DNA from: Candidatus Atabeyarchaeum deiterrae
Lineage (GTDB): Archaea > Asgardarchaeota > Atabeyarchaeia > Atabeyarchaeales > Atabeyarchaeaceae
DNA length: 64,000 nucleotides
Assembly (NCBI GenBank): GCA_037310415.1
Contig: CP147780.1
Location: forward strand, 2,560,001 to 2,624,000
Direction: 5' to 3'
Of this stretch, positions 1 to 46,586 are shown piece after piece (within the stretch, counting starts at the first letter, position 1; each line of letters begins with the position of its first letter). The notes below the pieces were generated by a model. The model was not told the DNA's origin and made no database searches. It saw nothing but the letters and a program-made list of their open reading frames with translations. The position numbers and the translations under genes are program-made.

Positions 1-418
1 TTAGCCCAATGGAATTGATAATAAGCATATTATGTTCGAGTGAGCCTTCAACAGGATATTTCTCATTCCGCATATCCTCTTTGAAATCCGAAATTGCCTT
101 AGTTATGGTTTCACCACAACCATTTTCGCCTTCCCTGAGCGGGCGGCTTGTATTCTGTGACTCACGTTTCAGGATTAGACCGTAAGGGTGATTCGGATTC
201 GTGCCATACCTCTTTCGGAGGAGTCCGTCAGGGGGCTCCAACGGTATTCTGATTACTGTGGGATTAGCAATATCTGCGACACCTGTGGACATAGCTGTCG
301 CTCCGTACGCTTTTGAAAAGACAGCTACTTGTTTGCCGCGTCGAGCAACTTGCTTGGCCGCTGTCAGTCCAGCAATCCCGCAACCAATTACTGCAACATC
401 GGTCTTGAGGCTATTCAA
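1..418 (-). CDS. glpB: Anaerobic glycerol-3-phosphate dehydrogenase subunit B (partial, runs off window start; not in ORF track)
   Basis: Hand translation from TTG at 418 (GGAGAGG RBS upstream) gives MNSLKTDVAVIGCGIAGLTAAKQVARRGKQVAVFSKAYGATAMSTGVADI...NPNHPY..., open to base 1. FAD-binding GxGxxG plus GlpB-type HPY motif; directly downstream of glpA. Confidence 0.8.
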   Translation of the reverse strand, partial: MNSLKTDVAVIGCGIAGLTAAKQVARRGKQVAVFSKAYGATAMSTGVADIANPTVIRIPLEPPDGLLRKRYGTNPNHPYGLILKRESQNTSRPLREGENGCGETITKAISDFKEDMRNEKYPVEGSLEHNMLIINSIGL

Positions 419-442
419 ATATGAACCTCTCCCTATCCGTCA

Positions 443-2113
443 CTAATCCTCACATTTAGTCTCCTTCTCACCAGAGTCTGAACCCTTCTGATTTCTCCGG
501 TTCCAGGCTTCGCCCAAATGGCTATAGCTTGACTGAAGAACTTCCTCCTGCACTAGTTGCCTTCCCAGAAGCAAGGGGCGTTTACCCTTCCATCTTTCCT
601 GCAGCAAGTCCTTCATCTCGTTCATCAGGACTTCGGGTGACTGTTTCAACTCATCAGCAGCAATAGCAGCAACTTTCGGTATGCATGTGCAGCCTTGACA
701 TGGACCCATTGCTATCCTTGTTCGCCTTCTAACATCGTTCAACGTCTTTGCCCACTCGTTCCTTATTGAGTATCTGATTGCAGCCTCTGGAATTGATTCG
801 CAATTGCAGACTTCCATCTTGTACTGCGGGTTCTCTTGAGTGAGCATTAGAACATCACTCGCCTTTGTTCCATAGAGATATGCTAGCTTTGCCGCCATGT
901 GAGGATAAATCCCAAATGCTCCTGCAAGGCGTTCGACGTTTACTTCCTGTTCAGCGCCAATTAGCGGATCGGCTTGGGTTCTGCACTCGGTGCTTCTATC
1001 CAGCTTCTTGCAGATGAGGTCAGTCATCTTCTCCGCCATGATGCGGTAGAGGACGAGCTTTCCCCCTCCAAAGGACAGGAACCCTGAAACACCCGCCTTG
1101 CTTTCGAAGTCGATGATTTCGAAGTTTCGGGTGACCTTGTCTTCAGGGATACCGTATTGGTTGATCATTGGCCTCACGCCAGTCATGGTTCTTATGATCC
1201 TAGCTTTGCGTATCGATGGAATTGCTTTCTCCATTCCCATCATAAGGTACTCTACGTCGTCGTACGTTGTCTCGACCTCGTCAGGATCACAGAAAATATC
1301 AACCGCCGTCGTCCCAAGGATCGTGGTGTTCTCGTGTGGGAAGAGATAGGCGCGTCTCCCATCTATGCACTTGGCGTATATTCCAATATCTGATATTCTT
1401 CTGTCGAAGATCACATGGCTTCCCTTGTTGAGGCGGAGGGGATGTTCGAGTCCAGCCATTTTGGCTACTTTCGAGCCCCATGGACCGGACGCGTTCACAA
1501 CTATCTTGCCCTTTATCTCCCTGACCTCGCCCGAGAATCTGTCCTTAACTCTTACACCCGTGATGGTGTTACGTTCCCTCAGAATGTCAACTACTTCTGT
1601 GTACGTGAGGATCTGAGCACCATGCTGTTTCGCGTCGAGGGCATTCATGAGAGTGAGGCGGAATGGATCAATGAAATATTCTCTAATGTAGATCGCGCTC
1701 ATAATATTAGGGCTCAGCTTCGGTTCCAATCTAAGAGCCTCGTCAGTCGTCAGTGTTATGATCGGGTCGCCTTTTCGGAGTTCACTGTAACCATCGTACG
1801 CTGCCGTAAACAGTTTCCCTTGGTTTACCTCAGACTTGTCGAGCCCGACAAGCAATATAGGGGTGCTAAAAATGACATTCCTAGCGATTTTTGCGATTAT
1901 TGCTGATTCCGCCACGCAGAGTTTGACCATAGGCGGCTCCATGAAGTACTTTGGTCCAGCGGAGATCATTCCGGCACAGGTGGCAACAGCGCCTGAAGCG
2001 ATGTCATTCCTCTCTACAAGAACTGTCTTCAATCCTCGTTTAGCACAGTCTCTCGCGGTTCCAACTCCAGCACTTCCGCCGCCAATCACTATGACATCAA
2101 AAACATCGCTCAT
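443..2113 (-). CDS. glpA: Anaerobic glycerol-3-phosphate dehydrogenase subunit A (FAD-dependent, C-terminal BFD-like 2Fe-2S domain)
   Basis: VIVIGGGSAGVGTARDCAKRG FAD motif, NASGPW, GVRP, GGKL, and C-terminal VCNCE...RRRTRIAMGPCQGCTC typical of GlpA. Likely start ATG 2113 (ORF track 2146). Confidence 0.9.
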   Translation of the reverse strand: MSDVFDVIVIGGGSAGVGTARDCAKRGLKTVLVERNDIASGAVATCAGMISAGPKYFMEPPMVKLCVAESAIIAKIARNVIFSTPILLVGLDKSEVNQGKLFTAAYDGYSELRKGDPIITLTTDEALRLEPKLSPNIMSAIYIREYFIDPFRLTLMNALDAKQHGAQILTYTEVVDILRERNTITGVRVKDRFSGEVREIKGKIVVNASGPWGSKVAKMAGLEHPLRLNKGSHVIFDRRISDIGIYAKCIDGRRAYLFPHENTTILGTTAVDIFCDPDEVETTYDDVEYLMMGMEKAIPSIRKARIIRTMTGVRPMINQYGIPEDKVTRNFEIIDFESKAGVSGFLSFGGGKLVLYRIMAEKMTDLICKKLDRSTECRTQADPLIGAEQEVNVERLAGAFGIYPHMAAKLAYLYGTKASDVLMLTQENPQYKMEVCNCESIPEAAIRYSIRNEWAKTLNDVRRRTRIAMGPCQGCTCIPKVAAIAADELKQSPEVLMNEMKDLLQERWKGKRPLLLGRQLVQEEVLQSSYSHLGEAWNRRNQKGSDSGEKETKCED

Positions 2114-6337: not shown

Positions 6338-6916
6338 TCAGGGAGTAGCTTTGGCTCCCTTCACAAGTCTGTTAACCAGAGCCTCCGTCACTGCCTTGAA
6401 TACCTCGTCGACACGCTCTCCTGTTCTTGCTGAAGTCTCTATGTAAGTTGCGTTTATCGACTTTGCGAAGCGCTCCCCTTCTTCAGCACTTACCTTTCTC
6501 TGAAGGTCAATCTTATTGCCTATCGCGATGAAAAACATGCTACTTGAGGCAAATCTCTTTATATCATCAACCCATTTTCGAGCACCGTTTACAGTTTCGG
6601 GTCTAGTTACGTCAAAGACTACAAACGCAGCCTTAGCCCCACCATAGTATTTCTCTCTGACCCTGCTAAAGATTTCCTGCCCAGCAATATCCCAGATCAG
6701 AAGGGTTACCGCGTAGGTGTCGACAACATAGTCGTTTGAAGTGATGTTGGCACCCAAGGTTGGAATATAATTCTCCTTGAAAGATGACATTACGTGTTTC
6801 GCCACGATGCTTGTCTTACCGACCGCTGGCTCTCCAAGAAACACAACTTTGAAGACGTGTTTTGCCCTGACGATATCTACCACCCTCCAAGCTCGACATT
6901 TAACATAGGTTCTCAT
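6338..6916 (-). CDS. Rab-like Ras-superfamily small GTPase
   Basis: G1 GEPAVGKT, G2 PTLG, G3 WDIAGQE, G4 NKID, G5 ETSART; RabF-like LLIW, YYGGA, VVFDVT. Confidence 0.93.
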   Translation of the reverse strand: MRTYVKCRAWRVVDIVRAKHVFKVVFLGEPAVGKTSIVAKHVMSSFKENYIPTLGANITSNDYVVDTYAVTLLIWDIAGQEIFSRVREKYYGGAKAAFVVFDVTRPETVNGARKWVDDIKRFASSSMFFIAIGNKIDLQRKVSAEEGERFAKSINATYIETSARTGERVDEVFKAVTEALVNRLVKGAKATP

Positions 6917-7362: not shown

Positions 7363-9009
7363 TTGAGCAACTATAGCGGCGAGGAATTGCGAAACCTTCT
7401 TGACACTATTAGGAAACTCTCGACAAGTGAAAACGCGTTGCATCCTTCAAGTAAGGAGCTAAGGAAGAAAGCTGAACAGTACGGAACACTTACCGAGTTC
7501 GGCAACTATCATTTCTCTTCGACTGTCAGAAACAGAAGTGCTGGTCTTACGGTATACGTTGGTGGAGGCAAGATACCGCAGAAAAACCTGAACAAGCAAC
7601 AACAGGAGATCACCAGGAATATCACAAAGACTCTTAGGCTCGTTGACAGGTACCTTCAGCGTGTCCCTCTGTACTACATAGCTCTGACAATGGGGAAGAA
7701 CGACGTATTCACCCCACACTGTGACTTCATTCTTTCCCGTTACAAGTCCGAGTTCGTGCGTCTAGGGTACATGGTCTACCAGACTCTGTTTCCAAGACAG
7801 AAAACTCCAGGCCCACAACTCTACCTCGTCGACCTACCAGAGTGGCAAGAGCAGGACAAACAGATACTTGTATTCCCAGAGGAAGGGCTAACACTCGTCT
7901 TGGGAAGTGACTACTACGGCGAAGTGAAGAAAGGCTTCCTCAGGATGGCCATGTGGAACTCAAAGAAAAGAGGAGGACTCGGACTGCATGCTGGCGCCAA
8001 ATTCATAAGAGCTCGGGACAAAGCGCAGGCAGATAAGATAAGAAAGATCGGTATGGTGATTTTCGGTCTTACGGCCACGGGTAAGACAACCCATACTGTT
8101 CATAATCATGGATTAACTGAGCCAGATGAAGAAGTTAAGATAATTCAGGATGACGTTGTTCTTCTGAACCCAGACGGTTCCGCACTGGGAACTGAGAGAG
8201 GGTTCTACATCAAAACTGAGGGTCTCAAACCTGAAACTCAGCCGCTTCTTTACAGAGCGGCGACCTCAAAAGACACTATTCTTGAGAACATACTTGTTGA
8301 CTACAAAGGGAAGTTGGATTTTGAGGATGAGACTCTGACGGGAAACGGTCGAGGAATTATACAAAGGGACGACTTAGGGCACTTCATGAGTGAGTCACTG
8401 AACCTTCCACCTGCCTCTGAACTTGATAAACTCATCTTGGCTTTCATTACCCGCAGGAACACTGTTCTTCCAATAGCCGCGAAGCTAAGCCCCGAGCAAG
8501 CTGCTGCTACATTCATGCTTGGCGAATCAATTGAGAGTACTGGCGGGGATCCCAAGCGGGCAGGTGAATCCGTTCGGGTTGTTGGGACTAATCCATTCAT
8601 CATAGGCGACGATGCCGATGAAGGAAACTGGATCTTTGATTTCATAAAACGCCACGCTGGAAAGCTTGAGTGTTATCAGCTAAACACTGGCGGCGTTGGA
8701 GAGATTCTTGAAAAGGCGCCTGACGGGTCAAAGATCACTAAACAGAAGGTAACTAGAGTTCAGATACGAGAGATGGGGACGATAATAAAGGGGATCTGCA
8801 AGGAAACAATCGAGTGGATTGAAGAGCCGTATTTCCATTACCTGGTTCCTGAAAAGGTTGAAGGTGTGGACATGAACAGGTTCAGCTTGACGAACTTTTA
8901 CTCTCAAGAACAAATAGAAGGATACGTTCGAATATTGAAAAACGAGAGACTCGAATATATGAAACAGTTTCAAGGATTGAATCCGGCAATCGTCAAAGCA
9001 TTACAGTGA
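7363..9009 (+). CDS. pckA: Phosphoenolpyruvate carboxykinase (ATP)-family protein
   Basis: GSDYYGEVKKGFLR, LHAG, P-loop FGLTATGKTT, IQDD, GTERGFYIKT, GTNPF, LNTG. GAGGTG RBS at 7351 before TTG 7363 (ORF track 7228). Confidence 0.85.
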   Translation: MSNYSGEELRNLLDTIRKLSTSENALHPSSKELRKKAEQYGTLTEFGNYHFSSTVRNRSAGLTVYVGGGKIPQKNLNKQQQEITRNITKTLRLVDRYLQRVPLYYIALTMGKNDVFTPHCDFILSRYKSEFVRLGYMVYQTLFPRQKTPGPQLYLVDLPEWQEQDKQILVFPEEGLTLVLGSDYYGEVKKGFLRMAMWNSKKRGGLGLHAGAKFIRARDKAQADKIRKIGMVIFGLTATGKTTHTVHNHGLTEPDEEVKIIQDDVVLLNPDGSALGTERGFYIKTEGLKPETQPLLYRAATSKDTILENILVDYKGKLDFEDETLTGNGRGIIQRDDLGHFMSESLNLPPASELDKLILAFITRRNTVLPIAAKLSPEQAAATFMLGESIESTGGDPKRAGESVRVVGTNPFIIGDDADEGNWIFDFIKRHAGKLECYQLNTGGVGEILEKAPDGSKITKQKVTRVQIREMGTIIKGICKETIEWIEEPYFHYLVPEKVEGVDMNRFSLTNFYSQEQIEGYVRILKNERLEYMKQFQGLNPAIVKALQ

Positions 9010-12115: not shown

Positions 12116-12949
12116 CTAGCAAATGATTATCTCACTGCGTTTCTCGCGAGCGATCCTATTTGCCAGTCGCTGTTCGCTTTGGAGGAGTGCGCCTTTCTTA
12201 AGACTTATTCCTAATGATTTGATGAAGCCTTTCTTAAGCGCTTCTTTCACCTCGACTAGAGGAACTTTTCGCCCTAGTTCTAGTTCGATACTTGTTACTT
12301 CCCTTCTGATACTTTTCACAAACTGCTTGAGCTTGCTGTCGGTAGGGTAAGGGGGGACGTCGAGAGCTTCTCTCATCTTCACTAGATCCGAGCTGACGAT
12401 AACAGTTCCGTGCACGAAAGCTACTTTTTTCCTTACAACTGCCGCGGTTCCGGATATCTTCTTTCCATTGACTTGGCAGTAAGCCCCTGCTGACACGAAA
12501 CTCACGTCCAAGCCTAGAGTTCTCAGTCCTTCGACCACGCCTCCACACAAGGTCGGAATAATCTCAGATATCGCACTCGGAACGATAGGGCCGCCGCGTC
12601 TCGCCGATAGGGCGTAGTTCAAGTTGCCACGGTCATGGTAGACGGCTCCTCCGCCCGTGAATCTTCTTACGACACTAATTCCTTGCTTTTCGCAGATTTC
12701 TCGATTTACTTCGAGTTCGGGCATCTGGAACTTTCCTATTACGATTGTCGGTTTCGTGTTTTTCCAGAACCTTATTGTGTCGGAGGCCTCCCCTGTGCTG
12801 ACATTCTCCAAGACTGCCTCTTCTACTGCCAAGTTGTGCAAAGGATCGTCCATGTCTAGTTCGAGTAGTCGCCAAGTCTGACTGTCCCGCGGATTATCTT
12901 GGTCCCACTTGCAATGTGTGTGAATACTTTTTGGACTGTCTGTTAACAT
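12116..12949 (-). CDS. lplA: Lipoate-protein ligase / octanoyltransferase (LplA/LipM family, catalytic domain only)
   Basis: NLAVEE, RRFTGGGAVYHDRGNLNY, GKKISGTA, HGT motifs; downstream of E2. Confidence 0.9.
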   Translation of the reverse strand: MLTDSPKSIHTHCKWDQDNPRDSQTWRLLELDMDDPLHNLAVEEAVLENVSTGEASDTIRFWKNTKPTIVIGKFQMPELEVNREICEKQGISVVRRFTGGGAVYHDRGNLNYALSARRGGPIVPSAISEIIPTLCGGVVEGLRTLGLDVSFVSAGAYCQVNGKKISGTAAVVRKKVAFVHGTVIVSSDLVKMREALDVPPYPTDSKLKQFVKSIRREVTSIELELGRKVPLVEVKEALKKGFIKSLGISLKKGALLQSEQRLANRIAREKRSEIIIC

Positions 12950-13113
12950 CGTGGTCGCCCTAGTTTTTCTATGTGTCCCTCAGATTGAGTGAGTCAAATG
13001 GATAACCGTCTCTCAAAAAGCTGGTCTCGAAGCACGAGTCTGACTTTCCCCTACGACGGAAGATAGATGAGCGCTCAAGCGCTGTGAGAAGCTTTCGAGG
13101 GCAATAGTAGAAC

Positions 13114-14400
13114 TCAGTATCTTAGTGCAAATGGATCTTCCAATATTCCTTTAATTCTCTGGAGGATCTCTGCTGCAGGCGCTCCATCAATGACTCTGTG
13201 GTCGACCGCCAAGGCCAGAGATGCCATTGGCTTCACCACGATCTGCCCTTTGTCGTCTACTGCGGGTTTCTTTGTAATCTTGCCAACAGCAAGTATTCCA
13301 GTTTCAGGTGGGTTTATGATGGGTATGAAAACGTCCACTCCGAACATTCCCAAGCTGGTTACAGTGAACGTTCCTCCCTGCATCTCTTCTGGGGTGAGTT
13401 TTCCTTTGAGAGCTTTGTCTATTAATTGACTAAGAACAGTACTAATCCCAGCTATGGACAACTTGTTTGCGTTGCGAACAACTGGAACGATGAGTCCTTC
13501 TTTTGTCGCTATTGCGACGCCCACGTTGATTTCATCGAGAATTCTTATTGTGTTTTCGTCATCTAGCTTGGAGTTCAAAATGGGGAACTCTTCGAGGACC
13601 TTCGCCACAGCTTTAACAATTATGTCCGTATATGAAACCTTGTTTCCAGCTCTTTTCTCAATCTCAGGCATTAGCCTTTCTCTAAGCTTCACGATTTCGG
13701 TCATATCTGTCTCCATTATGATCGTGATGTGAGGAGCGGTTCTGGCACTTTGGGACATCCGTCTGGCGATTACTCTTCGCGTCGGAGACATGGAGATTAT
13801 TTGCTTCACTTTCCTCGTGTCCATGACTCCAGCAGGTGCCTCGAGTTCGGGTCTTGCAGCAACTGCAGGGATCCTTGGTTGTGAAGGCATCAACACGTCC
13901 CTTGAGATTATTCTTCCCGCTGGACCAGTTCCAGCTAGCAGCCTTATGTCTATGTTCTTCTCTCTTGCGATTCTCCTTGCTGCGGGTGAAGCCTTCACGC
14001 GTCCATATTGATGGATTGCCCCTTGCATCAATGCTCCTGTGGTCGACTGAGTGGTTATCGTGACTGCCGCGGCAATCTGTTGCCCAATGGGTGCCGATAG
14101 CGATGCAGCTGCGGGGGGTGCAGCCTTCGCAACCTGTGCCAAGTAGCCTGAGACGTCTTCATTGGCTTCTCCAATCAATGCTATGACAGTGGATACTGGA
14201 ACTTCAGCCTTTTCGCCGAAGAGGATTCTGAGCATGATTCCTGAAGCGGGGGAATCTAGGTCTACTTCCATTTTTTCTCCGAAGACCTTGACGACTACTT
14301 CCCCTTTTTCAACACTATCCTTCTCTTTCTTGAACCACTTGAGAATTGTCCCTTCCTTCATTCCAAGGCTGAAAGCAGGCAGGATTAACGGCGTAACCAT
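13114..14400 (-). CDS. Dihydrolipoamide acyltransferase E2 (pyruvate/acetoin/2-oxoacid dehydrogenase)
   Basis: Lipoyl domain (FGEKMEVDLDSPASG), PSBD ASPAARRIA...GTGPAGRI, catalytic PIINPP and DHRVIDGA. Confidence 0.95.
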   Translation of the reverse strand: MVTPLILPAFSLGMKEGTILKWFKKEKDSVEKGEVVVKVFGEKMEVDLDSPASGIMLRILFGEKAEVPVSTVIALIGEANEDVSGYLAQVAKAAPPAAASLSAPIGQQIAAAVTITTQSTTGALMQGAIHQYGRVKASPAARRIAREKNIDIRLLAGTGPAGRIISRDVLMPSQPRIPAVAARPELEAPAGVMDTRKVKQIISMSPTRRVIARRMSQSARTAPHITIIMETDMTEIVKLRERLMPEIEKRAGNKVSYTDIIVKAVAKVLEEFPILNSKLDDENTIRILDEINVGVAIATKEGLIVPVVRNANKLSIAGISTVLSQLIDKALKGKLTPEEMQGGTFTVTSLGMFGVDVFIPIINPPETGILAVGKITKKPAVDDKGQIVVKPMASLALAVDHRVIDGAPAAEILQRIKGILEDPFALRY

Positions 14401-14626: not shown

Positions 14627-15583
14627 ATGAGTAATCGCTTTCGAAGGTGTCTTTACCGCATGGGGAACGTAGTTGTTGCGCTGGGTGACATCAACATAGA
14701 TATCTGTATGATTGGCAGCGGCAGACCCGAAGTGGGACGCGAGACTCTCGCCAAGGACATGGTGGTTTCGCCGGCTGGCTCAACAGGATACTTCGCTTTT
14801 GCTATTGCTAGACTGGGAGAAGAGTGCCGATTTGTTGGTCGCCTCGGAGGAGACTACTTCGGCAAAATGATTCTTGACAAGATGAAGTCATTTGGGATTC
14901 AGACTGGCTACATCAAAGTCGACCCAGATGCTGCAACAGGGGTCACGGTCTCGGTAGTCATGGACAATGGTGAGAGAGTTCTGGTATCTTATCTTGGTCC
15001 AACAGAATTGCTGAGTATTGGCGACGTTGATGAAAGGGCGTTGAAGGGAGCTAGACATCTTCACATGGGTGCTTTCCCGCTTCTGAAGTCTCTTCAAAGG
15101 TCAGTTCCAGAGATCTTCATGAAAGTCAAGAAGATGGGCATGTCGACATCGTTGGACACAGGATGGGATCCAACAGGCCGCTGGGATGTGGACGAGACTC
15201 TTCAATGGGTCGACGTTTTCTTGCCCAACGAAGAGGAAACCATTGCCATGACAGGTGGGAAGAGGATTACTGAAGGCGTCGAGGTACTATTGGCCAAGGG
15301 TCCTAGCGTGGTCGTCGTCAAACGTGGTGCCCATGGATGTACAGTCGCCACACGAGAGCGAAGTGTTGACATCCCTGCTTTCAAGGTCAAACCTGTGGAC
15401 ACCACGGGGGCGGGGGATGTGTTTAATGCTGGTTTCGTATATGCCTACCTAAGAGGAAAACCTCTGCCGGAATGCGCAAAGTATGGGAATGCGGCAGGCG
15501 CTCTGAAAACCCTGAGATCAGGTTGTGATGCAATTCCAGATCTCAAGTCAGTGGAATCACTAATTCTCACAGGAAGAGTCTGA
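14627..15583 (+). CDS. PfkB/ribokinase-family carbohydrate kinase
   Basis: GDINID, PNEEE, KRGAHG, VDTTGAGDVFNAG. Probable start ATG 14660. Confidence 0.93.
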   Translation: MSNRFRRCLYRMGNVVVALGDINIDICMIGSGRPEVGRETLAKDMVVSPAGSTGYFAFAIARLGEECRFVGRLGGDYFGKMILDKMKSFGIQTGYIKVDPDAATGVTVSVVMDNGERVLVSYLGPTELLSIGDVDERALKGARHLHMGAFPLLKSLQRSVPEIFMKVKKMGMSTSLDTGWDPTGRWDVDETLQWVDVFLPNEEETIAMTGGKRITEGVEVLLAKGPSVVVVKRGAHGCTVATRERSVDIPAFKVKPVDTTGAGDVFNAGFVYAYLRGKPLPECAKYGNAAGALKTLRSGCDAIPDLKSVESLILTGRV

Positions 15584-15782
15584 ACGAACAGAAAAGTCAG
15601 GATATCTGCATTTGTAACGCTTCGAAAAACTCTCCCGAAAATCGTAATAGAGGGGAGAGATAATCATTCAAGTAGTGACGACAAAGTATTTCAGTGACTA
15701 GCATAGATCAAGTGTGCAGCATCTGGATGAAAACCAATGATTCAGGACTGTCACTTTTGCCCGGACAACCTCTATTCAGTAA

Positions 15783-16688
15783 TTGGATGCGCCCAAGGGA
15801 TCTACGATGAGCAATAGAAACCTCAGCGATACTGTTAGGAAACGACGGCGAGTTCTTGCCAAGAAGGAAGGGGTTGAAGAGGGAATTCTCAGCCAAGCAA
15901 GAACCGATGGTCACATAGATGAACTCGTAGCAGCTTTGAAAGACGGAAATGTGGACAACGCAAAATTGGCTTTGCAGGCCATTGCGAATGCTGTGCCCGA
16001 AGGCTATGTTGCGGCAGTCTTGGTTCGTGACAGGAAGAATGATAGGGTTCAGCATGGAACTAGTCAATGTGTATGCTCCCTGAAGCCTGCTACGACAGAA
16101 TTGCCTATGCCTGAAAACGGCTCGTATGTGCTTACTGCCGAGGCTTCTCCAATAGCCAATATTGAGTCTTCTTTTCACATCGTTTGGCTTGGCGCGGAGT
16201 CTTCCGGCAAGTCAAGTTTGATTGAGAGAATTAGACAGGAAGAATTCGCATCGGTTCCCACGACTATAGGGCTAAATGTTACATCTTTCTTCTTGGAAGG
16301 AACCAAAATAGTCAACTGTGATGTCTCGGGGCACAAGTCTTTCAGGAGTATATGGGATTCATTGATTGTGGGTAACCCTGATATCATAGTGGATGTCATT
16401 GACGCATCCGACAGTTCCGCGCTTGATGCAGCGAAGGATGTGCTAACGAATTATGTACTTAAAAGCGAAAACCTCAGAAAAACTCCCATTGTGATTGCGG
16501 CAAATAAACAAGATGTTGAAGGAGCTTTGACGGTCGAGCAACTAGCCAATAAGCTGGGGCTGCCTACACTAATACAGGACAGAGACTGGAGAGTTATTGC
16601 GACCAGTGCCAAGACTGGCGCAGGCATCAGAGATATGCTAGGATGGATACTCCAAGAAATCAAGATGATTAAGGGTGTAGAATCCTAA
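15783..16688 (+). CDS. Arf-family small GTPase with ~120-aa N-terminal extension
   Basis: G1 GAESSGKS, G2 PTTIGLNV (Arf PTIGFNV-like), G3 DVSGHKSFRSIW, G4 ANKQD, G5 ATSAKTG, and LIQDRDW resembling the Arf LRDRxW segment. Confidence 0.9.
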   Translation: MDAPKGSTMSNRNLSDTVRKRRRVLAKKEGVEEGILSQARTDGHIDELVAALKDGNVDNAKLALQAIANAVPEGYVAAVLVRDRKNDRVQHGTSQCVCSLKPATTELPMPENGSYVLTAEASPIANIESSFHIVWLGAESSGKSSLIERIRQEEFASVPTTIGLNVTSFFLEGTKIVNCDVSGHKSFRSIWDSLIVGNPDIIVDVIDASDSSALDAAKDVLTNYVLKSENLRKTPIVIAANKQDVEGALTVEQLANKLGLPTLIQDRDWRVIATSAKTGAGIRDMLGWILQEIKMIKGVES

Positions 16689-17122
16689 TGGGAGTAGGAA
16701 CATTCGTAGCCACGCCAGTAGGTTCGACTGGAAAGAACTTCAGGATAATCATGAACACACTTGACGAATCGGCAACCGCAATCAAAGAAATGGCTGCCAG
16801 GGTCCTTGCCCTGACAGGTTCAACGCCGACCGCGTTAATTGCAAATGCTCAAGGAGCAGCGAGTTTTGAGCTACACATTGGGCTTCCTAGGGGTTACCAG
16901 GGATTCGCGGCATCGTGCATTGATGTATCAGGAGAGAACATCATATTGGCGTTGGCAGCAAAACCAACTGGGATGCCCTTACTCTCCTACGCAGTCGAAG
17001 CATGCAGGAACAAGATCAATGTGATAATTGAAGGGATTAAGAGAGATGGCAAAGTTCCACGTGATTTGCTGAGAGATCTCCATCTCAGTCTTGAAAGGGA
17101 ACTTGGGTTGTTCAGACTGTAG
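16688..17122 (+). CDS. Hypothetical protein translationally coupled to the Arf-like GTPase (possible longin/roadblock-like alpha/beta fold)
   Basis: 144-aa ORF whose ATG overlaps the GTPase stop (TAATG). The fold guess is from hydrophobic periodicity only. Confidence 0.65.
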   Translation: MGVGTFVATPVGSTGKNFRIIMNTLDESATAIKEMAARVLALTGSTPTALIANAQGAASFELHIGLPRGYQGFAASCIDVSGENIILALAAKPTGMPLLSYAVEACRNKINVIIEGIKRDGKVPRDLLRDLHLSLERELGLFRL

Positions 17123-17150: not shown

Positions 17151-18491
17151 CTACCAGATGTCGCCTGGGAAAGTGTGTGTAGGCTTCCTTGGGAAGGCAT
17201 TCTCCAATAGTCCAACAATCTCGTTTCGCTTCGCACCGGTTGTCGGCATCTTGAGCTTCCCCTCATTAATCAGCTCGGCAGAACTCTTGGCTCCGAATAG
17301 TAGCTTTGCAAATGAGTCATCATCTAGGAACATGACGCTGCCTTCCTTCTTTTCTTGGTCTTCCAAAACCGTTACGTTACCCGGTTCTAGTTTCAACGTC
17401 ACACTTCCTCCGCCTAGTATCTTGACTGCGATTGTCTTTAGGTGAGGCAGTGTGCTCTCGCGCTGCTCTCCTCTCTTGGAATAAAAATGTTGAAGGGAAG
17501 ACTGCATTGTCACTTTGAGATCTAGTGTCTTTAGCATGAATACACTTATGCCAGTGAGTGGGCTCGAACCTTTCCTAAACAAATCATCAATTAGGATGTT
17601 CTCGGAAGAGTATGCAATGATTGAGAGAGGACTCTCGTTTCTCAAATGCGACAATATGCTTTCCGCGATAGGTCTGCCCGCTTGCTTCTCATACCCGGGC
17701 GTGGTCAGAACCTCGCATATGTGTCCAAGTTTGTCTCTCTTTGCTAGCCCTGAGATTCCATATCCGACGATGTTCCCATCTTCTCCCTCAGCGACGATCA
17801 TATTGCCTTGCCTGAGATCTTCTTCATAGAAGGGACTTTCATAGACGAACCTGTCCCTGTACTTCGTCTTCCACATTTCCTTGTCTCTTACAGCTAAGCC
17901 ATTGTAAGAGTCATAATTCTTCTCATAAACTCTGAGTAGCGATGTGTCGTCCTTCTCAACGGATTCTCTGGTCTCTATCCTTTTTCCAAGTGACCCTTGC
18001 CTAGTTTGATCATTAGTCCATCCTAGTGGCGTTTTCACGCCTCTCAGCAACATCACTTGGAAACAGACACCAGAGAATCCGAGCCTTAGGTATATTCTGT
18101 GAGCTGGAATCTGCGCGCCAGTGAAAAGGGCCGAAACTAGAAAACCTTTCTCCCTCACAACTCCAAGCGCATGGTTCAATAACCTCGTCGATATGCCACT
18201 CCGTCTGAAGTCTCGTGTGGTTGAGACGTTGGCGATTCCTGCAACACTCAGTGTAGCTCCTGCCGCCACCTTCATCTTTCTCTCAACGATTTGGACATGA
18301 GAGACTATTCTGCCATCTTTTTCCGCGACAAAAGATAAATCTTTGCGGTACCCAGGATCAATCTCGAAGAATCTCCGCCATTTCTCTCCTGTCAGCCCAA
18401 ATGATTTGAAACTGCCAAAGCATTCGCTTAGGAGTTTGGCAATCTCGTCTTCGTCTCCTTCCCTGTAGGTTCTGATGCTCATATCCCTCAT
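17151..18491 (-). CDS. Eis-like GNAT acetyltransferase (tandem GNAT plus SCP2-like domain)
   Basis: GIANVSTTRDFRRSGISTRLL acetyl-CoA motif, IYLRLGF, a second GNAT repeat, and C-terminal FAKLLFG...LINEGKL. Confidence 0.85.
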   Translation of the reverse strand: MRDMSIRTYREGDEDEIAKLLSECFGSFKSFGLTGEKWRRFFEIDPGYRKDLSFVAEKDGRIVSHVQIVERKMKVAAGATLSVAGIANVSTTRDFRRSGISTRLLNHALGVVREKGFLVSALFTGAQIPAHRIYLRLGFSGVCFQVMLLRGVKTPLGWTNDQTRQGSLGKRIETRESVEKDDTSLLRVYEKNYDSYNGLAVRDKEMWKTKYRDRFVYESPFYEEDLRQGNMIVAEGEDGNIVGYGISGLAKRDKLGHICEVLTTPGYEKQAGRPIAESILSHLRNESPLSIIAYSSENILIDDLFRKGSSPLTGISVFMLKTLDLKVTMQSSLQHFYSKRGEQRESTLPHLKTIAVKILGGGSVTLKLEPGNVTVLEDQEKKEGSVMFLDDDSFAKLLFGAKSSAELINEGKLKMPTTGAKRNEIVGLLENAFPRKPTHTFPGDIW

Positions 18492-18575: not shown

Positions 18576-19781
18576 TTGGTGTTTTGCGTGTTCAAAGAGT
18601 ACGGTGAGTTACGGCACATAACCAACTTCAGACGAGTGATTTACCCTATTTCAATAGCGTTTTTCATCTACACCGCCGGCTGGGGAATTGCGTCTCCCAT
18701 CTTCTCCATATATGTGCAAAATGTGACAGGAGACCTGTTCATGACTGGCATCGTTCTTTCGCTGACTACAATGATGGGCATATTCCTCAACATACCAGTC
18801 GGTCTCGCAGAAAATAGAATCAATATGAAACGAGTCCTCCAAGTAGTGCTGCTCATTTACTCCGCCCTTGCCATACTGTACACTTTGGCCAATTCCCTCC
18901 TTCCATTACTGCTAGTCAGCGTTACTAGGGGAATTGCGTCGTCTTTCCTATGGTTGACTTCTTGGGCTTACGTTTTCAGCTATGCTGAGAAAGAAGTCAA
19001 AGGAAAGGAGACAGGATTCTTCTCTGACATGAATGACCTGGCCTCAGCCATTTTCCCTATTGTTGGGGGTTTTGCCACCCTGATTCTGATTTTTCTGCCG
19101 TTCTATCTTCTCAGCTTGACAAGCATAATTGCGTTCATCGTAGTTTCGGTCTTCTTGAAGGAGATACCTAGGCGCCAAAGAGCGTCGTTGAGAAGCCAGA
19201 CGGGAGGACTTTGGAGATCAATGCGCAATAAGCGATTCGTAAAGACGATTTTCCTTATAGTCGTTTTCTACGCTTTGATCAATATCTATTACTCCTTTCT
19301 ATCAGTTTTCCTTCATAGCGAAGGAATCTCTGTCCCAGTGATAGGTGTGATACTTACAGTCTCCCTCCTGCCTGCTGTTGCCCTCGAATTGCCAATGGGA
19401 AATATGGTAGATAGATATGGAGTACGCAAGACGTTGGTACCTGCTGTCATATTGACAACTCTTACGGCAATCCTGATAGCATTACCAAGTAGCATAATAC
19501 CATTCGCAACAAACATTTATTATACGATGGCAGTAGTAACGGCTTTCACAATTAGCTACACAATGATCTTCATAGTGCTTTACACGAGAATGTCTGATAC
19601 GCTGCGACAAAACAAAGTAGCCATGACTGGAGCAATTGCTGCATTCAAAGATCTGGGATATACTATTGGTCCGCTAATGGCTGGGGTGTTGATGGAATTC
19701 ATGAGCATTAGGAGCGTGTTCATATTAGCAGGCGCCGCATTCGCCTTCTTAATACCAGTTGCTCTTACGCTGCATGATTAG
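18576..19781 (+). CDS. MFS transporter
   Basis: ~12 hydrophobic segments; GNMVDRYGVRK loop motif; DLGYTIGP. Confidence 0.9.
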   Translation: MVFCVFKEYGELRHITNFRRVIYPISIAFFIYTAGWGIASPIFSIYVQNVTGDLFMTGIVLSLTTMMGIFLNIPVGLAENRINMKRVLQVVLLIYSALAILYTLANSLLPLLLVSVTRGIASSFLWLTSWAYVFSYAEKEVKGKETGFFSDMNDLASAIFPIVGGFATLILIFLPFYLLSLTSIIAFIVVSVFLKEIPRRQRASLRSQTGGLWRSMRNKRFVKTIFLIVVFYALINIYYSFLSVFLHSEGISVPVIGVILTVSLLPAVALELPMGNMVDRYGVRKTLVPAVILTTLTAILIALPSSIIPFATNIYYTMAVVTAFTISYTMIFIVLYTRMSDTLRQNKVAMTGAIAAFKDLGYTIGPLMAGVLMEFMSIRSVFILAGAAFAFLIPVALTLHD

Positions 19782-19809: not shown

Positions 19810-20802
19810 TCAACCCACTATCTCTTTGACGGCTTTGACGATCTTCTTCTCGTCCGGAATGAAGCAGCTTTCGAGCACAGGACTGAATGGAACTGGCGTA
19901 TCAGGTGCTGTGACTCTCATTATGGGGGCATCTAGGTAGTCGAATGCCTCCTCCATAATAATAGATGCAATCTCTCCGCTGACACCCGCAGTCCTGCAAT
20001 CCTCGCTCACTACCACGGCATGTCCTGTCTTCTTGACTGATTCACCAATAGTTTTCCTATCAAATGGCACAAGTGTCCTCGGGTCAATCACTTCTGCCTT
20101 TATTCCTTGGCTTTCAAGTTCCTTCGCCGCGCCAAGAGCTTTCTGAACCATGTAGAGTACTCCAATGATTGTTACGTCGCTACCCTCTTTCTTAATGTCT
20201 GCTTTGCCGAAGGGTATAGTGTAGTCTTCGTCAGGAACATTGCCTTTCACTCCATACAAGATCTTATGCTCAGCGAACAGCACAGGACTGTTTCCTCTGA
20301 TAGCTGTCTTGAGCAGACCCTTCGCATCATAGGGTGTCGATGCAACTACAAGCTTCAAGCCAGCAGCATGCATGAACCATGATAAGTAAGTTGAAGAATG
20401 ATGAGCGGCAACCTGGGTACCTGCACCATAGGGAGTTCGAATTACGACTGGAACCTTCACCTGTCCCCCGAACATGTAGTGGATCTTCGCCGCCTGATTC
20501 ACGATCTGATCCACAGCCAACGCTATTAGATCTCCGAACATGATCTCGACGACAGGTCTCATGCCTGTCATAGCTGAGCCTATTGCGGCGCCCACGAAAG
20601 TGTTTTCCGAGATTGGAGTATCACGCACCCTTTGATCTCCGAATTCATCAGCCAATCCTTGTGTCACCTTGAATGCGCCTTGCCAGTATTTCCCGATGTC
20701 TTCCCCCATTAGAAACACGGTCTTGTCTCTCTTCATTTCTTCGCGTAGCGCTTCTCGAATGGCATCTCTAACGGTTATCTCTCTCATCTTGATGTTCACC
20801 AC
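19810..20802 (-). CDS. 2-oxoacid/acetoin dehydrogenase E1 beta subunit
   Basis: MGEDIG, RDTPISE, GMRPVVEIMF, DQIVNQAAK, FDYLDAPI. Confidence 0.96.
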   Translation of the reverse strand: MVNIKMREITVRDAIREALREEMKRDKTVFLMGEDIGKYWQGAFKVTQGLADEFGDQRVRDTPISENTFVGAAIGSAMTGMRPVVEIMFGDLIALAVDQIVNQAAKIHYMFGGQVKVPVVIRTPYGAGTQVAAHHSSTYLSWFMHAAGLKLVVASTPYDAKGLLKTAIRGNSPVLFAEHKILYGVKGNVPDEDYTIPFGKADIKKEGSDVTIIGVLYMVQKALGAAKELESQGIKAEVIDPRTLVPFDRKTIGESVKKTGHAVVVSEDCRTAGVSGEIASIIMEEAFDYLDAPIMRVTAPDTPVPFSPVLESCFIPDEKKIVKAVKEIVG

Positions 20803-20810
20803 GCTGTTGT

Positions 20811-21809
20811 CTAGTCTGCATAGACATCGTCACAAACACAGGTTGGCTCAGGTTGCGGACTCTCCTTCGCAAATTTGGATGCTTCCTCAACCTTGAGTTT
20901 TACTTGGTCTTCTATCTTCTTCAGTTCGTCTTCCTTCGCAACCCTCTCGTCAAGCAACCTGTCACGCATTCTCTTCACAGCGTCCCTCTTGATCCACTCT
21001 TCAACTTCTTCCTTCGGCCTGTATGTCGCAGGATCGAATCTGGAGTGTCCTTTCAGTCTGTAGGTCTTGGTTTCAATCAGGGTCGGTCCTTCACCTTTCC
21101 TAGCTCTTCGAACAGCTTCAGACGCGACTCTGTAGACATCGACTACATCGTTTCCGTCAACGATGACTCCGGGCATGCCATAAGCGGATGCTCTGTCAGC
21201 GACATTCTCCAGAACCATCGCTATGCTTTGGCGTGTCCCCATTGCATACAGATTGTTCTCACAAACAAAGAGGACGGGCAGCTTCCAGACCGAAGCCAAA
21301 TTTAACGACTCGTGAAAAGTACCTTGGTTTGAGGCGCCTTCACCAAAAAACACTGCCACGACCTGATCTGTTCCTTTCATCTTGGCTGATAAGCCGGCGC
21401 CGACAGCTAAGGGAAGACCTGAACCCACAACACCAGTTGCACCCAAAATCCCCTTGTCAAAGTCGGTGACATGCATTGATCCGCCCTTACCTTTGCAGTA
21501 TCCAGTTCCTTTACCCATTATCTCAGCCATCATTTTGCCGAGGTCCGCCCCTTTTGCTATGCAGTGACCGTGTCCTCTGTGCGTGCTTTGAATGTAGTCA
21601 TCTTGTCTGAGAGCAGAGCATATGCCTACAGCTGAGGCTTCTTCGCCCAAGTAGAGGTGGATTGTTCCAGGGATGAGGTTCTGACCGAATAACTCGTAGA
21701 CTTTCTCCTCGAAAAGACGAAGCTCGAGGACCTTTCGATACATGTCTAGCAGGAAATTCTTTTCAAGTTTCAAGTCGGTTCCATGAACCTTTACAGTCAC
21801 AGTACTCAA
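20811..21809 (-). CDS. 2-oxoacid/acetoin dehydrogenase E1 alpha subunit (TPP-binding)
   Basis: STHRGHGH, GKGGSMH, GEGA...CENN TPP motif, TYRLKGHS. Confidence 0.96.
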   Translation of the reverse strand: MSTVTVKVHGTDLKLEKNFLLDMYRKVLELRLFEEKVYELFGQNLIPGTIHLYLGEEASAVGICSALRQDDYIQSTHRGHGHCIAKGADLGKMMAEIMGKGTGYCKGKGGSMHVTDFDKGILGATGVVGSGLPLAVGAGLSAKMKGTDQVVAVFFGEGASNQGTFHESLNLASVWKLPVLFVCENNLYAMGTRQSIAMVLENVADRASAYGMPGVIVDGNDVVDVYRVASEAVRRARKGEGPTLIETKTYRLKGHSRFDPATYRPKEEVEEWIKRDAVKRMRDRLLDERVAKEDELKKIEDQVKLKVEEASKFAKESPQPEPTCVCDDVYAD

Positions 21810-46151: not shown

Positions 46152-46586
46152 TCACTTCTTCGTAGGCTTCTTGGCTGGAACTCTCTCCTTTTCCTCCTCC
46201 TTCCCTCTCTCCTTCTCTACTTCAAGTATGGCCTCAGCAGCTCTACCGAGTTCACTTATCAGAATCCCTATTTTTGCCTCCCGCCTCGCCAATAACGTTA
46301 TTGCACTGTGGTCTCCTACTCTTCCTATGACGATGTATCCATCTGTGCATTTGACGAAAACTTGTTCGACTCCCCCTAGCTGCAGTACGTCGGCACTGAG
46401 TTTTCCTAAGTTGAGTAGGGTAGCTGTTATCGCAGCAACTACATCCTGAGATGAGTCTCCGTGGAGAGCGTTTGCTATCATCATTCCGTCGTAGCTTACA
46501 AGCGCTGCACCTTCTATCTCAGCCGTGCGACCTGTGATTTCTTTCAGAGCAAACCTGATCTTCTCCACGTCAACTGGCACGTCCAT
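46152..46586 (-). CDS. Roadblock/LC7 (MglB-like) domain protein
   Basis: IEGAALVSYDGMMIA, VAAITATLLNLG, LGGVEQVFVKCTDGYIVI, AKIGIL. Confidence 0.92.
   Translation of the reverse strand: MDVPVDVEKIRFALKEITGRTAEIEGAALVSYDGMMIANALHGDSSQDVVAAITATLLNLGKLSADVLQLGGVEQVFVKCTDGYIVIGRVGDHSAITLLARREAKIGILISELGRAAEAILEVEKERGKEEEKERVPAKKPTKK

Follow-up and report, generated by a model that had tools for sequence, protein, structure and literature searches.

An Arf-type GTPase with a histidine at the catalytic position and its translationally coupled, predicted longin partner in Atabeyarchaeia

We begin by asking which regulator belongs to which GTPase in an Asgard archaeon. Small GTPases are present by the dozen in Asgard genomes, and so are longin and roadblock proteins, and who regulates whom is largely unknown; the matching is hard because in MK-D1, as a rule, no operon joins the GTPases to such proteins (PMC10933270). 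The locus considered here offers a one-to-one pair of a GTPase and a candidate regulator, both small and soluble-looking, from the closed genome (2,756,679 bp) of the wetland-soil archaeon Candidatus Atabeyarchaeum deiterrae. It lies in a stretch of 64,000 nucleotides (contig CP147780.1, positions 2,560,001 to 2,624,000) that was analysed as a whole and is called the window below. The first gene of the pair encodes an Arf-family small GTPase and the second a single-domain protein, here referred to as the partner, for which a longin fold is predicted. We describe the two as a putative lineage-specific bicistronic module of Atabeyarchaeia, a GTPase with its longin regulator, and favour an action of the GTPase-activating protein (GAP) type; this is the reading that we prefer, tentatively and at somewhat less than even confidence.

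The first question is whether both genes are real, where they start and how closely they are tied to each other (coordinates are collected in Table 1). The longest open reading frame (ORF) of the GTPase runs over 15783..16688 on the forward strand, 301 codons from a TTG, and the true start is almost certainly ATG 15807, since all 27 homologues (290-294 aa) begin at the equivalent Met and since in eight aligned loci a Shine-Dalgarno-like (SD-like) GGGA or GAGG stands 7-10 nt 5' of it. Members of the GTPase family share 50-60% identity across the full length, and the partner family aligns over 144 columns free of gaps at 40-47% identity, eight copies of it at 42-47%; with this full-length conservation in both families the genes are real and not chance ORFs. 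At the junction the partner begins within the stop codon of the GTPase, and the eight loci read directly have TAATG, TAGTG, ATGA, GTGA (overlaps of 1-4 nt) or an 8-nt spacer in this place. The partner lies directly downstream of the GTPase in all 12 distinct loci for which upstream sequence is available, spread over three subclades (the extra loci came from partner scans of GTDB-wide genome contigs and of metagenome contigs), and neither gene is found without the other. The initial annotation of this DNA had delineated both ORFs, with the partner starting inside a TAATG, and had suggested coupled translation; the overlap is confirmed at 16686-16690, and the adjacency and the overlap or short gap recur across the loci. 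All the motifs that it listed are found in the GTPase ORF, within VPTTIGLNV, RSIW, NKQD, TSAKTG, CDVSGH and VRKRRRV. Its extension of ~120 aa with the RKRRR patch is present too, with the start moved to ATG 15807 and the length to ~118 aa.

We now consider the G domain. The Pfam Arf model matches residues 127-293 at 3.7e-31 and 108.4 bits, against a cut-off of 22.3, and the other Pfam models that respond do so at much lower scores (Ras 34.1, Roc 29.2, SRPRB 23.9 bits). Within its own genome the GTPase is the top match of the Arf model, with 109.6 bits vs 67.2 for the runner-up. When the protein is aligned to Arl3 (5di3), D180-V-S-G183-H184 stands opposite D-I-G-G-Q, so that H184 occupies the position of the catalytic Gln and C179 that of the Arf Trp. 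Both residues, together with the stretch VNCDxSGHKSFRxIWDSLIVG around them, are invariant among 26 aligned homologues; in other words, the WDxGGQ of Arf proteins with its catalytic Gln is replaced in all 26 sequences by an invariant C-D-x-S-G-H. The P-loop, the switch I Thr, NKxD and SAK are all intact in the family, and therefore the GTPase should be a working nucleotide-binding switch, as far as its motifs tell. The exchange of the catalytic Gln for His and the loss of the Trp before G3, which had been read from the single sequence, are thus borne out by the Arl3 alignment and by the homologues.

A short N-terminal amphipathic helix is a defining feature of the Arf family (10.1101/2024.02.28.582541), and the next question is what this GTPase carries in its place. 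About 118 folded residues precede beta1, and the sole candidate for such a helix, a basic one, lies ~100 residues ahead of the G domain. In the N-terminal domain (residues 9-126) R22, G30, E32, P72, Y75, P102 and P123 are invariant in all homologues. The AlphaFold2 (AF2) model gives a predicted local distance difference test score (pLDDT) of 75-94 over residues 30-125 and shows four helices, the first of them basic, followed by four strands; the GTPase model is of low confidence over residues 125-197. The first helix has a net charge of +4 to +7, a hydrophobic moment of 0.38-0.51 and a negative mean hydrophobicity, and because it is polybasic, only moderately amphipathic and negative in mean hydrophobicity it is not a classical Arf helix. 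Every G domain with the C-D-x-S-G-H signature carries this domain. Relatives of the domain were sought in several ways: Pfam gives none, a profile search of the PDB has a best E of 0.98, a structure search of the Atlas returns template modelling (TM) scores of at most 0.53 with unrelated families only, and hhalign finds it unrelated to the partner (probability 0.1%). A VIA structure search with the whole GTPase was filled by matches of the G domain.

The partner has to be approached through its predicted structure. It has no Pfam, NCBIfam or PDB sequence match, either as a single sequence or as a profile; eleven members of its family match no Pfam model at E values up to 1, and genome scans with PF03259 (Robl_LC7) and PF13774 (Longin) do not pick up its locus. 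An exhaustive phmmer search of 1.84 billion representatives yields only three true relatives, none of them longer. A word-indexed search likewise stays within the lineage of the partner, and the weak matches in the Pfam, NCBIfam, PDB and word-indexed searches (PaaK, DUF155 and others) are noise. By sequence, then, the partner is an orphan family with no relatives outside its own lineage. Its conserved blocks are T-L-D-E-P, E-M-A-x-K, D-L-P-[KR]-x-Y-x-G, K92 and a C-terminal D-L-H-L-x-L-E-R-E..F.L; of these, the invariant E-M-A-x-K lies in helix alpha1 and follows the invariant T-L-D-E-P as its cap. The window copy is the most divergent of the partners and deviates at several sites where all the others agree (S28 instead of P, G65 instead of D, P97 instead of A, L99 instead of F), besides the G-S at positions 12-13 that is taken up below.

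With an alignment of 11 sequences, AF2 builds the partner at a pLDDT of 77 and a predicted TM score (pTM) of 0.74 as beta-beta-alpha-beta-beta-beta-alpha-alpha, which is the longin topology. Foldseek ranks 8yqg first among the PDB entries (E 6.8e-4), the longin domain of a Roadblock-Longin protein from a Lokiarchaeon, and places Lst4, GATOR1, TRAPP, Fuzzy and FNIP2 after it. VIA, an aligner that does not depend on Foldseek, was run against 48,161 representative chains and places Lst4 first (Z 11.4), then C9orf72-SMCR8 (10.8), 8yqg (10.2) and FLCN (10.1), with TRAPP and sedlin at 8.4-9.2 and roadblocks at 6-7.7. A second ranking gives Lst4 at Z 11.8, 8yqg and the FLCN of the active GAP complex 8dhb both at 11.5 (the latter with an rmsd of 2.7 A over 122 aligned residues), FLCN at 10.4 and 10.1 and the C9orf72 of the ARF1 complex at 10.4; all remaining longins lie at Z 8.9 or less, a step below this group, whose members reach at least 10.1. 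Nearly all of the 50 best structural matches are longin or roadblock domains. The assignment of the model to the longin fold looks sound, and its likeness to the sub-type of longins found in GAP complexes is suggestive. A longin- or roadblock-compatible fold had been anticipated from the strand and helix pattern, and it is the longin type that the predicted topology and the two structure aligners uphold.

Combining this information, we propose how the two proteins would work together. The first gene would supply an ArfR-derived GTPase in which the amphipathic helix has been exchanged for the domain of ~118 aa with its polybasic helix, the catalytic Gln for His and the Trp for Cys. The second gene would supply a minimal single longin of the type present in the eukaryotic GAP complexes (FLCN-FNIP/Lst7-Lst4 and C9orf72-SMCR8). 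Because the partner is translationally coupled to the GTPase gene, the two proteins are probably made in matched amounts. The longin protein, probably a dimer as in the known longin platforms, would dock on the GTPase, with its alpha1 face and the neighbouring loops placed on the invariant switch II and interswitch. Once docked, it would control the GTP cycle, with GAP or co-GAP action favoured; His184 would position the water as in Sar1, and the basic N-terminal domain would provide localisation. Physical binding of the pair, its stoichiometry, the direction of the regulation and its cellular role we infer along these lines. A dedicated complex is suggested by the invariant switch II, by the conserved alpha1 face and loops of the partner and by the translational coupling that has been kept. 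The GAP-type action is favoured because of the structural neighbours in GAP complexes and because a GTPase with a Gln-to-His change, such as Sar1, is expected to require catalytic aid from outside.

Several points weigh against this proposal. The longin call comes from one AF2 model on an 11-sequence alignment; the single-sequence partner model of the ESM Atlas is poor (pLDDT 0.45), and a look-up of the partner in that Atlas gives a best feature match of 0.75 and structural TM scores of at most 0.46. The GP motif of catalytic GAP longins (defined in PMC12290439) has a possible equivalent at positions 12-13, where 10 of the 11 homologues read (D/G)-P and the window copy reads G-S. The sole invariant Arg of the partner, R137, sits in the C-terminal helix and not in a loop, R125 is nearly invariant, positions 16 and 68 hold either K or R, and the beta4-beta5 loop is variable. 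Lst4, which the partner matches best in structure, is not the catalytic subunit of the complex it belongs to. The known longin GAPs are heterodimers with DENN domains, while the partner has 144 aa with neither a DENN nor any further domain, and there is no second longin gene in the locus, either in the window or in the homologous loci. A complex prediction (GTPase residues 9-301 and the partner, with GTP, Mg and both alignments) scored 0.01 against a mark of 0.32 and gave no verdict; we take it as evidence neither way.

These points raise the alternative that the pair is indeed cognate and that the longin protein is an effector, an adaptor or a guanine nucleotide exchange factor (GEF) instead of a GAP. 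The GTP form might recruit it, in the way SRbeta recruits SRX, or it might stabilise the nucleotide-free form, like the longins of TRAPP, Mon1-Ccz1 and DENN proteins. The evidence that links GTPase and partner applies here equally, the GP motif is partial and no loop Arg is invariant, and longins of GEFs and scaffolds are matched as well (TRAPP, Fuzzy-Inturned, Mon1-Ccz1 and DENND1, Z 7.3-8.9). It also speaks for this alternative that most longin platforms are GEFs or scaffolds (PMC12290439). Against it, the longins of GAP complexes (Z 10.1-11.8) stand a step above those of GEFs and scaffolds, and a Gln-to-His GTPase would be expected to need the catalytic aid mentioned above. SRX itself is longin-like in fold (PMC3747258). 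We regard this alternative as the most serious competitor, less probable than not and still well worth keeping in mind.

A second alternative is that the two genes are co-transcribed neighbours whose products do not touch, with the partner working with something else and the adjacency inherited in a narrow lineage. To weigh it we turn our attention to the distribution of the pair and to its surroundings. The partner occurs in three of 400 genomes of the phylum, all of one family, and a search of ~185,000 species representatives (GTDB-wide contigs) finds it in two genomes besides its own, both of them Asgard metagenome-assembled genomes. The module is, by this sequence survey, confined to Atabeyarchaeia-type Asgards. 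All loci come from one family-level lineage, which counts against a dedicated pair because the synteny may in part be simply inherited. Between the two closed genomes the average amino acid identity is ~70% (PMC11291895), and the general separation of GTPases from their regulators in MK-D1 (PMC10933270) likewise speaks for neighbours without contact. On the other side, the outer flanks have been reshuffled between subclades with the pair intact, the overlap is kept through different codon solutions, and a longin fold, the standard platform for small GTPases, is unlikely to stand beside a GTPase by coincidence. We consider neighbours without contact unlikely, and return to the interacting pair of GTPase and longin regulator.

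The surroundings of the pair have one further constant element. In the seven homologous loci that were fetched via the GTPase the order is PfkB kinase, GTPase, 144-aa gene, and in all eight loci examined the PfkB gene lies upstream of the GTPase while the outer flanks change (upstream E2/LplA, phosphoenolpyruvate carboxykinase (PEPCK) or SCP2; downstream an acetyltransferase, a major facilitator superfamily (MFS) transporter or a geranylgeranyl-reductase-like gene). Since PfkB is constant and the outer flanks are variable, the PfkB, GTPase and longin genes form a conserved three-gene block. One can go further and picture a minimal pre-eukaryotic system of Arf and longin GAP, similar to the C9orf72-SMCR8-WDR41 (CSW) and folliculin complexes, in which a bare longin homodimer switches off the His-dependent GTPase and which, together with PfkB, acts as a nutrient or carbon-state switch targeted by the basic N-terminal domain. 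We think this extended picture quite improbable.

The next question is where the GTPase comes from. A phmmer search of the PDB is headed by Arl3 and Arl1 (95-99 bits). The ArfRs of 8OUK-8OUN (83-87), the Asgard ArfR structures of Vargova et al. (10.1101/2024.02.28.582541), come next, before Arf1/6 (~72), and the top 60 matches include no chain of Sar1 or SRbeta. Searched alone against the 400 genomes, the G domain gives three matches at 63-100% identity, all of its own family, and after a gap GTPases of ~185-190 aa at 33-38% identity and ~100-105 bits, a type that is ubiquitous among certain Asgard families; a word-indexed search with the G domain returns only its own family. The ~185-190-aa relatives have an amphipathic N-terminus (MSFLSKLRAKF...) and WDIGGQ or IDVAGQ, and since one of them scores 272 bits to HodArfR1 (8OUL) they are bona fide ArfRs. 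The GTPase studied is the sole match at the ArfR level in its own genome. In a maximum-likelihood tree of 76 sequences, computed without eukaryotic, ArfL or Rag references and carrying a long-branch warning, the family forms one clade (Shimodaira-Hasegawa-like approximate likelihood ratio test, SH-aLRT, 99) that is sister to the HodArfR1 type (SH-aLRT 84) and separate from 26 small-GTPase paralogues of its own genome. We read the GTPase as a lineage-specific derivative of the ArfRs, as its sequence relatives suggest.

In several Hodarchaeales-type loci (L021, L023, L025 and L026, ~885-2010 in locus coordinates) the HodArfR1-type gene is the second of a tandem GTPase pair, in which the gene of a 182-aa GTPase (MPTKLFGREIENQ...) ends ~13 nt before it on the same strand and follows an aminoacyl-tRNA synthetase gene. 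A 211-aa ORF 5' of the HodArfR1 loci was considered as a longin and rejected, as it encodes the C-terminal portion of a class II aminoacyl-tRNA synthetase, truncated where the locus ends.

Where Arf proteins have the catalytic Gln, Sar1 and SRbeta also carry His. A further reading makes the pair an archaeal equivalent or precursor of the SRbeta/SRX module, or of Sar1 and a coat GAP; it would fit this His, the weak similarity to Pfam SRPRB (PF09439, 2.9e-05) and the longin-like fold noted above for SRX, but we give it very little credence, since the SRPRB score of 23.9 bits is under the cut-off of 25 whereas Arf reaches 108, neither Sar1 nor SRbeta figures in the top 60 PDB sequence matches, the structural Z of the AF2 model declines from Arf1 (16.3) and HodArfR1 (15.0) to Sar1 (14.5) and SRbeta (~12), the tree puts the family with HodArfR1-type ArfRs, the polar and basic N-terminus of the GTPase offers no transmembrane anchor of the SRbeta type, the partner is a free-standing 144-aa protein without an SRalpha-type fusion to a signal recognition particle (SRP) GTPase domain, and the family is restricted to one Asgard lineage. 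A specific kinship with Sar1/SRbeta, after which the initial annotation had named the type of His, is accordingly not supported, the nearest relatives being Arl3/Arl1 and the Asgard ArfRs, and the common His is most simply read as convergent.

We turn to the expression signals and the wider neighbourhood of the block. The spacer between PfkB and the GTPase measures about 225-230 nt, and the conserved TATA-like block that it contains (Table 1) is a probable promoter of its own for the putative two-gene unit. A second conserved block of the spacer, with the consensus TCCGAAAAGCGTAA (window 15610-15640), stands ~35 nt upstream of the TATA-like element and is a possible binding site for a regulator. 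A wetland metatranscriptome holds one 174-nt contig identical to 16728-16901, too little for a claim of expression or co-transcription, and three further RNA runs have no match to the locus.

In the window, genes of a 2-oxoacid dehydrogenase (12116-14400 and 19810-21809, both on the reverse strand) are interrupted by the PfkB-GTPase-longin block and two more genes, an Eis-like acetyltransferase (17151-18491, reverse strand) and an MFS transporter (18576-19781, forward strand), with E1 alpha and beta on one side and E2 and the lipoate-protein ligase on the other. The homologous loci L002, L007 and L009 are interrupted in this way as well; the subclade of L005, L006 and L008 is not. In that subclade a gene for an Arf/Ras-like GTPase of 177-181 aa (~80-630, reverse strand) and PEPCK lie upstream of PfkB, and L005 has an IS605 OrfB/TnpB-like gene downstream (7815-8492).

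Table 1. Features of the GTPase-partner locus, in window coordinates.
Feature	Position	Strand	Basis or remark
PfkB/ribokinase-family sugar kinase	14627..15583	+	best match ribokinase, 154 bits, below every NCBIfam equivalog cut-off
TATA-like block, conserved, consensus AAGGTATTTTAGCAAC	15682..15698	+	alignment of 8 PfkB-GTPase intergenic regions
Arf-family small GTPase gene	15807..16688	+	293 aa from ATG 15807
N-terminal domain, ~118 aa	15807..16160	+	in place of the Arf amphipathic helix; conserved in all homologues
Basic helix RKRRR	15837-15851	+	head of the N-terminal domain
G domain	16161..16685	+	alignment to Arl3; P-loop, switch I, G3, NKQD, SAK
P-loop GAESSGKS	16191-16214	+	within the G domain
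G3 D-V-S-G-H	16320-16334	+	within the G domain; switch I Thr is Thr161
SD-like AAGGGTG	16671-16677	+	within conserved GTPase K-G-V codons
TAATG stop/start overlap	16686..16690	+	partner ATG has one base in common with the GTPase TAA
Partner gene, 144 aa, single domain, predicted longin fold	16688..17122	+	ORF, alignment, AF2 model

What does the locus add to what is known? The literature searched contains no description of the GTPase family, of its His/Cys signature, of the N-terminal domain or of the partner, in agreement with the earlier view of an uncharacterised two-gene pair. The locus combines a natural Gln-to-His change with a new domain in place of the Arf membrane helix, which is informative on how Arf-type switches can be rebuilt. 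The pair also touches a question raised in PMC12290439, whether the FLCN/SMCR8-like longins of Asgards have ArfR or Rag GTPases as their clients. Its reach is limited in two respects: the module is restricted to one uncultured lineage, a different one from that proposed as sister to the eukaryotes, and no link in sequence connects the partner with the eukaryotic longins.

Among known systems, the ArfRs (HodArfR1 and GerdArfR1, 8OUK-8OUN) are the closest relatives of the G domain, with 35-38% identity to it across several Asgard families, and group with the family in the tree. They are proteins of ~185-190 aa with an amphipathic helix and the Trp and Gln, whereas the family described here has the ~118-aa domain, Cys and His; their loci have no coupled downstream longin gene, whereas this GTPase is coupled to a predicted longin. 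Sar1 and SRbeta resemble the GTPase in the His, but other proteins are closer to it in sequence, in Pfam score, in structure and in the tree. For the partner, the best structural matches are the eukaryotic longin GAPs, FLCN-FNIP (Lst7-Lst4), C9orf72-SMCR8-WDR41 and GATOR1 (PMC12290439). In the complex of CSW with ARF1 the switch regions of ARF1 lie on the alpha1 helices of the longin dimer, and CSW is a GAP for Arf GTPases to which SMCR8 supplies the Arg finger (10.1101/2021.04.13.439632). The partner differs from these GAPs in having no sequence similarity to them, in being a bare longin with neither a DENN domain nor a second longin gene, and in having a client GTPase with His rather than Gln.

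The arrangement of the genes recalls another group of systems. In MglA/MglB a small GTPase is likewise encoded beside a regulator of the roadblock superfamily. The same holds for the Asgard Roadblock operons, and an operon of Roadblock, Rab-like GTPase and DENN genes is present in most Asgards (10.1101/2020.10.19.343400). The genome studied holds two classical clusters of GTPase and Roadblock genes of its own, at ~723 kb and ~1,589 kb, each with two or three Roadblock/LC7 genes around a small GTPase gene in the same orientation, an MglA/MglB-like arrangement (genome positions 722901-724793 and 1588569-1589865). Within the window there is a Roadblock/LC7 gene (46287-46532, reverse strand, Pfam 48.5 bits) that is not adjacent to the pair, and a second small GTPase (6386-6865, reverse strand, Arf model 54 bits) that adjoins neither the Roadblock/LC7 gene nor the pair. 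Compared with the regulators of the Roadblock operons, the partner has a predicted longin topology and is unmatched by the Robl_LC7 and Longin models of Pfam, and its GTPase is of the Arf type, unlike the MglA- or Rab-like GTPases of those operons. Operons of a GTPase with a roadblock or longin protein are therefore already known as a kind, and it is this GTPase-partner family, with its signature and its N-terminal domain, that is newly described here.

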